Positions 29,111 through 33,816 of a DNA stretch of 64,000 bases are shown here, one piece after another. Every line of letters starts with the position of its first letter. The stretch's first letter is position 1. Made by a program: the position numbers and the translations under genes. Where the stretch lies: assembly GCA_021800165.1 (NCBI GenBank), contig JAJYZF010000004.1:3296-67295 (forward strand), read 5' to 3'. The DNA comes from Planctomycetota bacterium. Its GTDB lineage: Bacteria; Planctomycetota; Phycisphaerae; WQYP01. The notes below the pieces were generated by a model that had not been told where the DNA came from, did no database searches, and saw only the letters and a program-made list of their open reading frames with translations.

Positions 29111-29139
29111 GGTCGGGGGTTCAAATCCCTCCCCCGCTA
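29111..29139 (+). other. tRNA-like 3' fragment (T-arm, 3' acceptor strand and discriminator) without a 5' half
   Basis: GGTCGGGGGTTCAAATCCCTCCCCCGCTA has T-stem GGGGG/CCCTC, T-loop TTCAAAT, acceptor 3' strand CCCCGCT and discriminator A. The matching 5' acceptor (A/G)GCGGGG is absent within 100 nt upstream. Confidence 0.5.
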
Positions 29140-29145
29140 TTATCT
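29120..29145 (+). repeat. Direct repeat DR1 (att-like), pairs with 33788-33816
   Basis: TTCAAATCCCTCCCCCGCTATT-ATCT versus TTCCAATCCCTCCCACGCTATTCTTATCT. 22-bp core with two mismatches, 4.6 kb apart, same orientation. Confidence 0.5.
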
Positions 29146-29270
29146 GGCTAAACAGAGCCGGATAGAAACTGATTTCAACACTTTGGGTGTTGGGATCAGC
29201 CTTTATCGTTTTGAGGTAGCGCCAGACGAGCTCCTTTTTCACCTCCACGGTTTTCTCGACCCAGCGAATC

Positions 29271-29747
29271 TCATGAGGCGGACATCCTGATCAGTCGTGG
29301 GTCGAACTTGATCGGCTGCTTCGTTCCGACCGATATCTTCGCAAAATCCCGATGCGCAGGATTCAGCAGGTAATTCCACTCGCTCGGGACAATCACGCTG
29401 GGCAGCCGCAACACCGCTGAAGTTCCGCTGGCCGCCCATGCGTCGCCGATCCGTTGTGCCGCTTCCGGTACCGGCGACTTTCGCCAGGCCTCTGGAAGTG
29501 CGGCAGGATCAATGGCTGTCATCAAAGACTCGTCGAATGTTACCTCGAAGCTAACGAAGCGACTCATTAATTCAGGAGCCTGCAGATGCATCAGAATTTC
29601 CAGAATGGCCAATGAAATGCTGCTGGCGGTGTAGACCATTGCCGTCCCCTGGCTATTCCAACGTCCGCCGTAAGCCTTGGCACCGCCACCTGAAAATGCC
29701 GCCGCCGCATGTTTACTTTTGGTGATGCGCCATGCGCGGATCGTCAT
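29271..29747 (-). CDS. RES-domain toxin (MbcT/ParT-like, NAD+-targeting family)
   Basis: RES signature GGRWNS...YTASS...E. ATG at 29745-29747 overlaps the antitoxin stop (ATGA). Confidence 0.75.
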   Translation of the reverse strand: MTIRAWRITKSKHAAAAFSGGGAKAYGGRWNSQGTAMVYTASSISLAILEILMHLQAPELMSRFVSFEVTFDESLMTAIDPAALPEAWRKSPVPEAAQRIGDAWAASGTSAVLRLPSVIVPSEWNYLLNPAHRDFAKISVGTKQPIKFDPRLIRMSAS

Positions 29748-30205
29748 GCGAAGACCCCGTGTTCCAATCGGCCAATCAGATTCTCGACTTCGCGTGCTCC
29801 AACGTCCGTCGCGGCGAAGTCCAGCGGGGTTTCTCCACCCAACCCCGATTGCCGGGTCTGTATCCACTTTCTCGCGGCTGCAACATCCCCCTCAAACAGA
29901 TCCACAGCCTGATCAAATATGGCCGATGCCCGCCACACCCGGTCGGATTCATCAGGTTGCAGTTTTCCTTCGCTTTGCCGCCGGGTCAGAGTACGTTGCG
30001 GGATGGCAACAAAGCGTGAGATTTCGGCCCACGGCAGTTGGGTCGCCTTCTGAAATCCGGCGAGTTTCTTGAACGGAAACCCGGCCCGGACCAACCGCAC
30101 GATCTTGACCGAATCGTTCGTGCCAATCCCAAGCCTGCGGGAGGCAACCCTCCTCTTTGCGCCCTTGATCTTGTACTTTCTCGCATGAGCCTCAGTAGTC
30201 GTCAT
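29744..30205 (-). CDS. Xre/MbcA/ParS-type antitoxin (DUF2384 C-terminal domain)
   Basis: AAGGAG RBS. C-terminal RASAIFDQAVDLFEGDVAAARKWIQTRQSGLGGETPLD is typical of RES-partner antitoxins. Confidence 0.7.
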   Translation of the reverse strand: MTTTEAHARKYKIKGAKRRVASRRLGIGTNDSVKIVRLVRAGFPFKKLAGFQKATQLPWAEISRFVAIPQRTLTRRQSEGKLQPDESDRVWRASAIFDQAVDLFEGDVAAARKWIQTRQSGLGGETPLDFAATDVGAREVENLIGRLEHGVFA

Positions 30206-30810: not shown

Positions 30811-31254
30811 TCAGACCCATCGCGTGATCTTGTTTCCTTCCCGGTCAATAAAGTTGCCGGTCACGATCATGATGAGGTCGCAGATTATCCAGAGACCGAA
30901 ACCACCAAGGGTCAAAGGCATAAGTAGCCCTGTTCCAACCTTCCCCACGTAAAACCGGTGGACACCCAATATCCCCAGAAACCAACAGAGGAGTAGGACT
31001 GGAAGAATTCGCTCTGGGGTTCCAAGTTGAGCACCGCATTTTGGACAGGCGAGCGCGGTTGGGTGTATTTGGGCACCGCAGCCTGAGCATCGCCAGAGCC
31101 TTGAGGCCACTATGGCCTCGCGTTGGGCTGCCTGGCGGCTGAGCCGGTCGTGGCAGTTGGAGCAGACGATTGTATTTTGCCAGACCATCGCTTGTTCGTC
31201 TTTCCCCATTTGACGGGAACAGCATTCGCACTTTTCCACGGACTCTGTCGACAT
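30811..31254 (-). CDS. Zinc-ribbon / TM2-domain membrane protein
   Basis: Three CxxC pairs in the N-terminus. C-terminal TM2 domain (GVHRFYVGKVGTGLL...GGFGLWIICDLIMI). AAAGGA RBS. Confidence 0.6.
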   Translation of the reverse strand: MSTESVEKCECCSRQMGKDEQAMVWQNTIVCSNCHDRLSRQAAQREAIVASRLWRCSGCGAQIHPTALACPKCGAQLGTPERILPVLLLCWFLGILGVHRFYVGKVGTGLLMPLTLGGFGLWIICDLIMIVTGNFIDREGNKITRWV

Positions 31255-31690
31255 GTTAAAGTTCCTTTTCGTGGGGGCCGGGCGACGGGCTTACGAGTTT
31301 CCATATATTTTAGCCTACCGAATGGTTGCCGCAAGCTTGCGACGTAAATGCCCACATTGGCCCCTGTTGGCAGGGCCGTAAGGAATAGGTCTCTAATAAG
31401 TTCGGCGGTCAATGGGCGATTGAGTGTGAAAGGCTCCTATGAAATCGCTACACTGACTCGTACTTGGCTGGAGATACTCAGAGGGCGCTCGTCACCAGTA
31501 ATGGCGCGGACGATTCCCTCTTGGGGGAACGTAGCCTGCAGCCAGTTGGAAGGGAGAACATGATTATTTGGACGGTTTGCCCCAGGGGTGGGCTGCGGGT
31601 CTGAAAGAGCGTGTTTGGTACCAATCGGATCCCCGCGGTTCTGACGAGCCGGAACGAAGGAAGGCCCAGCGCATGCAGGTGTTGCATCTG

Positions 31691-33538
31691 TTACGGCACC
31701 GAGGACGGGATATTGCGGAGTTCACTTGCGGCTTGCTCCCGGAGATTATCCGGGGCATCACCCATTTTGAGTATATCACGATAACGGGCGGCAGCATCGG
31801 CGTATTCACAAGAAAGAGCGAGCAAACGCGATTGCGCCAAGATTGCCTTGGCCCTCTGATCGGTTGGTGCCTCCGCAGTCGCGGCCAGCGCGGCGTATTC
31901 CTGGATGGCCACCCGAAATCGCCCCTGCTCCGCATGGACTGCAGCACGGTTGTATTGTGCGTGGGCCCTTTGCGTGGCGGTTGAACCGGCGAGTTGAGCG
32001 ACGCGTTCGTAATCATCAATCTCGAGGTCAGGACGGCCCCGCATACCGTGTGTTATGGCGCGACTGATCAGAGCGTCGGCTTTCATTTCGGAGCTGCTTT
32101 CGGGTGCCGCCAGGATCGTATTAAAGTCCTCAATGGCGAAGTCGCACAATCCTGCGCTCCGGTAGGCGCGAGCTCTGCCGAATAGTGCGCTCAGGGCAAG
32201 GCTAGGCGGGACACCATCAATTTGCATGGCCTCGTTGAAATCGCTTATCGCGTCATGTGCTTGGCCGCAGCGTAGCCGGACGATACCGCGATTCCTTATC
32301 GCGTGCGCGGTGGTCTGCGGGCGCGCGCCCCGGACGCCAATTGCCAGGGTATAGAAATCGCAGGCCCAATTCGCGTAGCCGGAATTGCTGTAGCCGAGGC
32401 CAGCTTGAAGGTAATATTCGCCCCACCTTTCCGAGAGATCGAGGGACGAGAACAGCAGAAGCGACTCGGCGAAAACGACGACTGGGTGGCGATCATATTC
32501 CGGCGGGTCGGCCGCCGGCTGCGGCGAGACGGTTCCGCCAACTCGGGCGCCGATGATGAGGCCGTTCGTGCATCCCGCAGGCATCGCCGCTCGCGTGGCG
32601 GGCTCGCTGGGTAAGGTCGCGGCCCCACGGGCCAAATGGGCTTGATCTTCGTCGAGCAGTCGTTCCGGTGCCATTGCTGGTGGATCGTCGGCTACGGTGC
32701 CCCAGTCCTTTATGGGAACGCTGGTTTCGGCGCTCGACCTGCCGCCCAAGGTGCGCGTGGCCGCCGGGAATCCAAAAAGGGACGTGCAGCGGTTGGGGTT
32801 TCGGCCCACGATAATGGCCACAGAGTAGTCTCCGATTTCGTTGATTACCGTGTTGCCGCAAAAATTCGATTGGTCGCCAAGATTACCTTCCTGTATAGGA
32901 AAATGGATGCCGTTCCACCAGAGGTCCGCCTGTATCAAGCAGAAGTGGGATCCGAAAAATTTTGCTTGAAATGCCGTCTGTCCATTTCGGGCTATTGTGA
33001 ACATCCCGCCGTGGTAAACAATGTCATCGACGTCTGAGGTGCGGTAGGACATCTCATTATTTTGAATGATGAGCAACGGATTATCCATCTCGTCGTATAT
33101 TTTTAGACTTAAAAGCCAGTGATCTGATTCCCACCGTAGGCTGATAACGGAATTGCCGTCCATAGCCAGTATTATCACGTAACCGTCCTGGCGGGCGCGC
33201 ATGGAGAAGCTGTTGCTGGCAACGGAGATGCAGCACTCACGGGAGTGGGTTAGCCAAACTGTATCGGGAGTGCTAAGCGAATTCTGCCGGCGTTTGTTGA
33301 AGGGGGTAGAATTGGCCGCCCCGATCTCTTTCCGCGAAAAAATCCCGTTTGTTGTCTTTCTGTGGCATCCATCGCAGAGCATTGTGATATCATTTTCGAC
33401 GTGGCCCGTTTTGCTGTTGTAGCCATTAATATGGTGGTATTCGCAAATAGGCCTGCCGCACAGTACGCAGCCATAGCCACATCTTTCCCGCACTCGACGT
33501 TTTATTTCTGCGGGAATTTGCGGGCGATTCTGCGCCAT
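31691..33538 (-). CDS. Large HNH-nuclease / TPR-repeat protein (candidate defence effector)
   Basis: N-terminal HNH motif RCGYGCVLCGRPICEYHHINGYNSKTGHVENDITMLCDGCHRK. A central region of about 330 aa has no recognisable family. C-terminal TPR-like repeats run from about residue 430 to the end. [10 protein letters not shown] before the ATG at 33536-33538. Confidence 0.6.
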   Translation of the reverse strand: MAQNRPQIPAEIKRRVRERCGYGCVLCGRPICEYHHINGYNSKTGHVENDITMLCDGCHRKTTNGIFSRKEIGAANSTPFNKRRQNSLSTPDTVWLTHSRECCISVASNSFSMRARQDGYVIILAMDGNSVISLRWESDHWLLSLKIYDEMDNPLLIIQNNEMSYRTSDVDDIVYHGGMFTIARNGQTAFQAKFFGSHFCLIQADLWWNGIHFPIQEGNLGDQSNFCGNTVINEIGDYSVAIIVGRNPNRCTSLFGFPAATRTLGGRSSAETSVPIKDWGTVADDPPAMAPERLLDEDQAHLARGAATLPSEPATRAAMPAGCTNGLIIGARVGGTVSPQPAADPPEYDRHPVVVFAESLLLFSSLDLSERWGEYYLQAGLGYSNSGYANWACDFYTLAIGVRGARPQTTAHAIRNRGIVRLRCGQAHDAISDFNEAMQIDGVPPSLALSALFGRARAYRSAGLCDFAIEDFNTILAAPESSSEMKADALISRAITHGMRGRPDLEIDDYERVAQLAGSTATQRAHAQYNRAAVHAEQGRFRVAIQEYAALAATAEAPTDQRAKAILAQSRLLALSCEYADAAARYRDILKMGDAPDNLREQAASELRNIPSSVP

Positions 33539-33787
33539 TTGCCCCTCCAAGGAGGATAGCCGTTGAGGGCAGTCAGGCCGTACACAACAACGGTACGTCC
33601 GAGCGCAAAGAATCCTAAGCTTTTCGTTATTGCCACGCAAGCAGAACTGCGGAAGATATTACATTTCCTTCAGGGGCGCGGTCCAGCGGGTTACGGAGGC
33701 TCAGAACAGTGGGGGCGAAGCGGGATGCCTCTAGGGTGGTTGTTGGGTGTACCGTAAATATGAGATTCCCGCCGGTAATTTAGCCCT

Positions 33788-33816
33788 TTCCAATCCCTCC
33801 CACGCTATTCTTATCT
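33788..33816 (+). repeat. Direct repeat DR2 (att-like), pairs with 29120-29145
   Basis: See DR1. Confidence 0.5.

Follow-up and report, generated by a model that had tools for sequence, protein, structure and literature searches.

When a mobile element integrates into a tRNA gene, the copy that the element brings regenerates the gene, and the original 3′ fragment is pushed to the distal end of the newcomer. The Islander survey, which defines such islands by a tDNA, a displaced tDNA fragment and a tyrosine integrase, recorded thousands of islands at anticodon-loop and T-stem-region sites together with 125 tandem arrays, and tRNA-targeting tyrosine integrases are described as crossing over at subsites in the anticodon loop, in the T loop or at the T/acceptor junction (PMC4383910). 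Integrase-less remnants flanked by att sites in tandem arrays are known as cis-mobilizable elements (CIMEs), for which a route of integration, decay and accretion has been described (PMC5704250). There is also a published precedent for a partial tRNA gene that was separated from its full copy by inversion (PMC9897764). Here we analysed a stretch of 64,000 nucleotides from an uncultured Phycisphaerae lineage of the Planctomycetota (contig JAJYZF010000004.1; the whole of this stretch is called the window), in which two 3′ fragments of a tRNA gene bracket a 4.6-kb segment with accessory genes. Our analysis indicates that these direct repeats are probably attR-type scars, that is, displaced 3′ fragments of an initiator-type tRNA-Met gene, which were left by two successive site-specific integrations.

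The locus resembles the Islander islands in that 3′ tRNA fragments in direct orientation enclose accessory genes, homology breaks off at the anticodon loop in one copy and at the T loop in the other, and the nested pair looks like a tandem array (PMC4383910). In contrast to those islands, the window holds neither an intact cognate tRNA gene nor an integrase, and the Islander filters would reject what is a fossil. With the CIMEs it shares an integrase-less cassette between att-derived direct repeats, in tandem with accessory DNA on the tRNA side (PMC5704250). However, CIMEs were defined in Firmicutes, have intact att sites beside the target gene and have been demonstrated to undergo cis-mobilization, whereas in the window the att copies are unequal and one of them is mutated, the target gene is missing and any mobility would be hypothetical. 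The orphan attR at Arg-TCT of Thermococcus kodakarensis is likewise the 3′ part of a tRNA gene that stands in rearranged DNA without a full copy in its vicinity (PMC9897764), but its complete genome allowed the two partners to be mapped, whereas the window is known from a contig of a metagenome-assembled genome (MAG).

The left copy, within the interval 29097-29141 that reads GCTCATAACCCGGAGGTCGGGGGTTCAAATCCCTCCCCCGCTATT, consists of the anticodon loop CTCATAA (anticodon CAT), the variable loop, the T arm, the 3′ acceptor strand and the discriminator A, which is directly followed by TT and not by CCA. From G29097 to A29139 it is identical at 43 of 43 positions to the intact tRNA-Met(CAT) genes of an Actinomycetaceae MAG (L054) and a Spirochaetales MAG (L077). 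The homology to intact tRNA-Met begins at G31/C32, the 5′ edge of the anticodon loop; 5′ of G29097 the similarity ends completely and the upstream sequence is unrelated. When 29096-29142 was aligned on its own with the Rfam tRNA model, a 5′-truncated match was obtained that covered model positions 29-71 of 71 (21 bits, E=0.007), and the acceptor 5′ strand, D arm and anticodon stem that would complete the cloverleaf were absent from the left copy. An initial annotation of this DNA had described a T arm and 3′ acceptor strand at 29111-29139, which was correct but incomplete, as the homology starts in the anticodon loop at 29097 and spans 43 nt. Its remark that the matching 5′ half is missing agrees with a degenerate pattern search of the whole 64-kb window, in which no tRNA 5′ half was matched.

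The right copy is shorter. A 22-mer at 29120-29141 on the plus strand, TTCAAATCCCTCCCCCGCTATT, has a second copy in the same orientation at 33788-33809, TTCCAATCCCTCCCACGCTATT, which differs from it by 2 mismatches; this recurrence had been noted before. We generated 100 dinucleotide-preserving shuffles of the sequence, and none of them gave two matches to the 22-mer; when up to 6 mismatches were allowed, the sole extra match in the window was the 3′ end of the real tRNA-Gly. Homology of the right copy to tRNA-Met begins at T54, the first base of the T loop, and there is none further 5′. Comparison of the flanks of the two copies revealed no additional similarity, and the DNA to the right of 33809 starts CTTATCTCAAAGGGACTTGC. 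One of the mismatches lies at T-loop position 57 (A to C) and produces a non-canonical T-loop base. In strain L003 the right copy reads TTCCAATCCCTCCCCCGCTATT, with 1 mismatch instead of 2; one mismatch is common to all strains and the other is strain-specific. These results suggest that the right copy was formerly nearer to the tRNA sequence and is now drifting, which supports common descent followed by decay. Both fragments end at the discriminator, on the plus strand and in the same orientation, and the 4,648 bp between them (29140-33787) fall within the Islander length range of 2-200 kb.

To identify the parent tRNA, the 25-mer GGGGGTTCAAATCCCTCCCCCGCTA was scanned in one genome per GTDB species. 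This gave at least 120 matches, mostly from Alphaproteobacteria among the matches listed, to which the following counts also refer. ARAGORN predicted a tRNA-Met(CAT) gene ending at the 25-mer in 20 of the 22 loci scanned, the exceptions being L063, which has no gene there, and the second match in L081, which is a truncated copy. Two types of gene share this 3′ end, an elongator-like one (AATCATAAT in the loop region) and an initiator-like one (GGGCTCATAACCC, with the 5′ end CGCGGGG), and the window fragment agrees with the initiator-like and not with the elongator-like form. Directly after the shared 25-mer, most other phyla have CCA. Altogether, in ~130 other loci among the matches listed the core stands at the 3′ end of a tRNA-Met-like sequence with a CAT anticodon, either intact or 5′-truncated, and the sole exception seen was the viral contig L153, where the sequence is non-CAT; the core is thus not a dispersed repeat. 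Viral contigs scanned with the 25-mer yielded 12 complete tRNA-Met genes and L153, and no truncated attP-like fragment. In a collection of metagenome contigs that evidently does not include this sample, as a JGI contig with the sequence exists, neither an intact initiator gene ahead of TT nor the 25-mer ahead of a base other than C was matched.

Within the whole window, ARAGORN and Rfam at its gathering threshold detected only tRNA-Lys(TTT) at 37400-37474 and tRNA-Gly(GCC) at 43066-43137, and neither program found an intact tRNA-Met in the 64 kb. A permissive Rfam search of 20-38 kb added no further tRNA remnant. Since neither the tRNA-Lys nor the tRNA-Gly gene encodes CCA, the TT after the discriminator of the left copy is compatible with a native gene. 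By sequence comparison, then, both copies are assigned to the 3′ end of an initiator-type tRNA-Met(CAT) gene, and the earlier statement that neither tRNA of the window is the parent holds. An origin from tRNA-Gly or tRNA-Lys and a tRNA split by a group I intron were rejected on sequence, on the position of the breakpoints and for want of an Rfam match. Copies of the same tRNA-Met 3′ end that are truncated at their 5′ side also occur in L101 (Desulfopila sp. IMCC35008, NZ_CP050700.1), L063 and L081. The initiator-type fragment of L101 is broken at the same point as that of the window, directly 5′ of CTCATAA, and in L081 the intact tRNA-Met and the fragment are only ~1.8 kb apart.

The initial annotation had read the repeats as attL and attR of an integration into a tRNA gene. 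Both homology breakpoints coincide with integrase crossover subsites, the anticodon loop on the left and the T loop on the right, and tRNA-gene integration is indeed the best explanation; the two copies, however, do not form an equal pair. Because one is a 43-nt fragment of the anticodon-loop type and the other a 22-nt fragment of the T-loop type, two integrations fit better than one. Moreover, the distal scar is shorter and mutated and the proximal scar matches at all its positions, which fits tandem accretion with the distal scar as the older. In the history that we propose, an earlier element would have recombined at the T loop of tRNA-Met and left the 22-nt scar of 33788-33809 at its far end, and this element would then have decayed and lost its integrase. 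A later element would have entered the regenerated tRNA at its anticodon loop, so placing the 43-nt scar of 29097-29139 before the older element. Finally, the intact tRNA-Met and the later integrase would have been deleted, or moved away by rearrangement in a repeat-rich, recombination-prone region. Up to the second integration this history follows the route described for CIMEs (PMC5704250), and for the final separation the inversion case offers a precedent (PMC9897764). The 4.6 kb between the scars would represent the rest of the older element, a decayed, CIME-like remnant produced by tandem accretion, whose retention may have been favoured by its RES-Xre pair. We infer the order of these events, the origin of the 4.6 kb from one former element and the manner in which the tRNA was lost. 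All in all, the feature is real but ordinary: it is a further case of a well-known genomic fossil and involves no new mechanism. Its value lies mainly in annotation, in that the partial tRNA-Met sequence should not be called a gene. It would also date two old integrations in a variable region of toxin-antitoxin (TA)/defence type in this lineage, and it is an example of the integrase-less att-flanked cassettes that can arise through tandem accretion, decay and rearrangement.

We then compared the locus among strains, using ~10 strain contigs that were found by exact-protein look-ups of the RES, M78 and CsrA proteins. Exact-protein matches revealed the same arrangement on DAHZYB010000010.1 (MAG GCA_027436015.1), on a JGI metagenome contig and on several ENA and Logan contigs. 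A comparison of related strains for presence or absence of the 4.6 kb, which had been suggested as a check on the island, disclosed no polymorphism, as every one of the ~10 contigs that spans the segment keeps it. Sharp strain breakpoints were instead located at ~27866, where L145 has different cargo on the left, and at ~36127, inside a CTCC-heptamer repeat, where L135 has different genes on the right; neither coincides with a tRNA-derived repeat. With no polymorphism and with breakpoints away from the repeats, there is no evidence of present or recent mobility of the segment as a unit. Strains that diverge by ~4% in the flanks carry one substitution, A29123G, in the left 43-nt fragment. As one change in 43 nt compares with ~4% divergence in the flanks, the left fragment shows no sign of purifying selection or selective constraint.

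Two observations on the strain contigs stand apart. The L135 contig (DAHZYC010000079.1), from a sister MAG (GCA_027436035.1), is 99.7% identical to the window over 29532-36127, and its M78-DUF4411 genes are followed by a 504-aa protein, an MFS transporter, a poly(A) polymerase and a peptide deformylase, and not by tRNA-Lys and LpxL; this junction reflects either a population-level rearrangement or a chimeric contig. In addition, contigs of several independent assemblies stop at 29085-29569, in or close to the left tRNA fragment and the RES gene, with ends at window positions 29085, 29166, 29429, 29439, 29488, 29532 and 29569. The overlap between L134 and L144, which come from one sample, is exactly 141 nt, the k-mer length of the assembler, and this pattern suggests unresolved strain variation there.

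In other species the conserved blocks on the two sides of the region are not neighbours. In L162, whose alcohol dehydrogenase (ADH) is 90% identical, the ADH gene adjoins AroDE, AP (apurinic/apyrimidinic) endonuclease and SecA genes; in L124, tRNA-Lys adjoins an AraC-type regulator; and in L129 the acyltransferase is preceded by Fic, PRiA4, M48, PDDEXK and phage tail genes. No tRNA-Met was seen in the relatives retrieved through the LpxL-like and ADH flanks. As judged from the relatives compared, synteny thus breaks at the variable region, which is a hotspot of foreign DNA. The segment, which had been presented as an isolated mini-island, is accordingly only one module of a ~16-kb variable region of TA/defence type at that breakpoint.

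Several points weigh against a history of two integrations at a resident tRNA-Met. The identity of the tRNA was judged against genes of other phyla, and a match to the tRNA-fMet of this lineage is presumed. An intact tRNA-Met is lacking upstream within 29 kb, where core genes occupy 1-20.7 kb, and the model consequently requires an extra, unobserved step of deletion or rearrangement. No remnant of an integrase was found in any open reading frame (ORF) tested, and the GC content of the segment is not distinctive. Only the repeats would mark 29140-33787 as one former element. Finally, an empty site was not found in any strain or relative examined; with synteny broken on both sides in the relatives, such a site cannot be defined.

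The absence of a tRNA-Met here has one serious alternative explanation, namely that the fragments formed at a tRNA-Met elsewhere and arrived inside larger composite-island DNA, so that the gene never stood at this locus. Neither tRNA-Met nor a remnant of its 5′ half occurs in the 64 kb, the region is mosaic, with modules that have recombined between strains, and it lies at a synteny breakpoint, all of which speaks for imported scars. The 43-nt fragment is moreover identical to initiator tRNAs of unrelated phyla and hence need not be native. An import would, however, require the same origin of the scars from integrases plus an additional transfer step, and no donor was found. The fragment is followed by TT without CCA, like the native tRNA genes, a feature that fits a native origin without proving it. 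We therefore consider import unlikely, though it deserves to be kept in mind.

Decay without any integration is a less probable account still. A tRNA-Met at ~29063-29139 could have lost its 5′ half by an unrelated deletion or insertion, and the right copy could be a partial duplication or the remnant of a pseudogene; the region is rich in dispersed repeats able to drive deletions, and neither an integrase nor a remnant of one is present. Against this, both truncations fall at the 5′ edge of 7-nt loops, which are the canonical crossover subsites (PMC4383910), both fragments extend to the exact 3′ end of the tRNA in direct orientation, and the accessory genes between them are a signature of islands. 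Furthermore, no obvious mechanism other than integration would duplicate 22 nt at a distance of 4.6 kb, and we regard this explanation as improbable.

The 4.6 kb could also be a single discrete island with the copies as its attL and attR, a functional CIME-like element that lacks an integrase and can be excised by one encoded elsewhere. Direct repeats derived from a tRNA and 4.65 kb apart, the lack of an integrase inside the segment and the fact that CIMEs are a documented class (PMC5704250) agree with such an island. The copies are nevertheless unequal (43 nt and 22 nt), the right core has 1-2 mismatches that include the non-canonical T-loop base, and neither an intact tRNA nor an attB-type site was observed. 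The segment is kept in all spanning strain contigs, and the mosaic breakpoints at ~27866 and ~36127 are not at the repeats; no relatives of the cargo were found in viral contigs, and no homologue of the HNH-TPR protein was found. A single, still functional island is thus very improbable. We hold it most improbable that the cassette is active in this genome, being excised or mobilised in trans by a tRNA-fMet-targeting integrase that is encoded elsewhere in it and would recognise both tRNA-derived repeats. To our knowledge, CIME-like elements have not been described in Planctomycetota; mobilisation in trans, if true, would extend CIME-type hitchhiking to this phylum, and nothing found here points that way. 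Lastly, only the shortness of the right copy could suggest that the similarity arose by chance or that the core is a dispersed repeat with no relation to tRNA. This explanation is effectively refuted by the outcome of the shuffles, by the presence of just two copies of the 22-bp core in 64 kb, by its link to tRNA-Met in the other loci listed (L153 excepted) and by the right copy of the sister strain, which is nearer to the tRNA sequence.

The features of the locus are collected in Table 1. The segment carries the RES, Xre, TM2 and HNH-TPR genes only, and no genes for integration or transfer. Pfam detected no integrase domain in the scanned ORFs of 21-37 kb, including the small gap ORFs of the 4.6-kb segment, in agreement with the cargo that had been listed initially. 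The ATG of the RES gene overlaps the stop codon of the Xre gene by 4 nt (ATGA), as in a translationally coupled pair within one operon. The pair resembles the RES-Xre modules (MbcTA/ParST-type) of mobile elements in having a RES toxin, an Xre antitoxin with a C-terminal toxin-binding domain, and coupled genes; in contrast to those modules it is mere cargo here, and RES-Xre does not explain the repeats. The HNH-TPR protein combines an N-terminal HNH-like region with C-terminal TPR repeats, and its first ~180 residues match the phage family phrog_6544 (E=4e-24) as well as HNH endonuclease profiles and PHROGs. Its homologues among 5.8 billion proteins were limited to its own 96%-identity cluster. 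Searches for an intact parent element with the HNH-TPR and RES proteins, among homologues and viral loci, likewise returned nothing besides the cluster of the query itself, and no relatives of the cargo of the segment were found in viral contigs.

Table 1. Coordinates of the tRNA-derived fragments, the genes between them and the enclosing region.
Feature	Position	Strand	Evidence
Left copy, 43-nt 3′ fragment of initiator-type tRNA-Met gene	29097..29139	+	43/43 identity; 5′-truncated Rfam match
Right copy, 22-nt fragment, T loop to discriminator plus TT, TTCCAATCCCTCCCACGCTATT	33788..33809	+	0/100 shuffles
RES-domain toxin gene, 158 aa	29271..29747	-	Pfam RES E=3e-33; same start called in public assemblies
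Xre-type antitoxin gene, 153 aa, C-terminal toxin-binding domain	29744..30205	-	Pfam Xre_MbcA_ParS_C E=1e-15, Xre-like-HTH E=4e-10
Zinc-ribbon + TM2-domain membrane protein, 147 aa	30811..31254	-	Pfam TM2 E=3e-15, zinc-ribbon families; PHROG phrog_10292 E=7e-15
HNH-TPR protein, 615 aa, orphan	31691..33538	-	Pfam TPR_12; PADLOC ZorE-like HNH E=4e-4
Variable region, conserved ADH block to tRNA-Lys, ~16 kb	20700..37399		Pfam; relatives without the region at both flanks

The variable region comprises, from left to right, genes for PIN, DUF4238, DUF3800, HNH_2 and phage-like CsrA proteins, the left fragment, RES-Xre, zinc-ribbon/TM2, HNH-TPR, the right fragment and the M78 peptidase-DUF4411 genes, and both of its ends are repeat-rich non-coding DNA with inverted and dispersed repeats. 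To its left, 1-20.7 kb hold ordinary core genes (citrate synthase, LptF/G, LepA, GH116, GH172 and alcohol dehydrogenase). Rightwards from tRNA-Lys the genes are again core (LpxL-like, LUD/LutB/CCG, HslV-like, YggS-like and tRNA-Gly), and synteny over this block extends to L124, the closest other species, which has an acyltransferase 85% identical to that of the window. This flanking acyltransferase has its nearest named homologues in MAGs of Phycisphaerae and Phycisphaerales.

Further observations concern the neighbours of the segment. On the plus strand at 28317-28562, an 81-aa ORF with an SPPY motif weakly resembles N6_N4_Mtase over the first 40 positions of that model (E=0.016). This ORF is probably what is left of a DNA methyltransferase gene, a hint of gene decay. 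Beside the right tRNA scar, at 34270-35915 on the plus strand, lie the genes for an M78 (ImmA/IrrE-like) peptidase and a DUF4411 protein, whose coding regions overlap. Many of the RmrA and CapP models of PADLOC match the peptidase, and the gene pair is likely to be a regulator/effector or TA-like defence module. Upstream of tRNA-Lys, ~1.4 kb of non-coding repeat-rich DNA (35900-37350) contain arrays of a CTCCYRA heptamer, tandem units of 48-72 nt and palindromes of the form TCCCGATG...CATCGGGA. Related repeat pieces stand in inverted orientation at 21516-21604 and 36561-37126, within the repeat-rich ends at 20700-21700 and 35900-37350, so that the whole variable region is bracketed by repeats.

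Outside the region, a 305-aa ORF with no Pfam or PHROG match lies directly downstream of tRNA-Gly on the plus strand (43224-44141). The syntenic locus of L124 has ~900 nt less DNA downstream of tRNA-Gly and does not have the gene for this ORF, and no tRNA-Gly fragment flanks the ORF in the window. Finally, a 208-nt direct repeat, 92% identical between 15477-15684 and 21226-21433, surrounds the GH116-GH172-ADH block (15757-20694). The same pair is present in the strain contig L144, and the repeat could belong to a dispersed intergenic family or mark the ends of another cassette.

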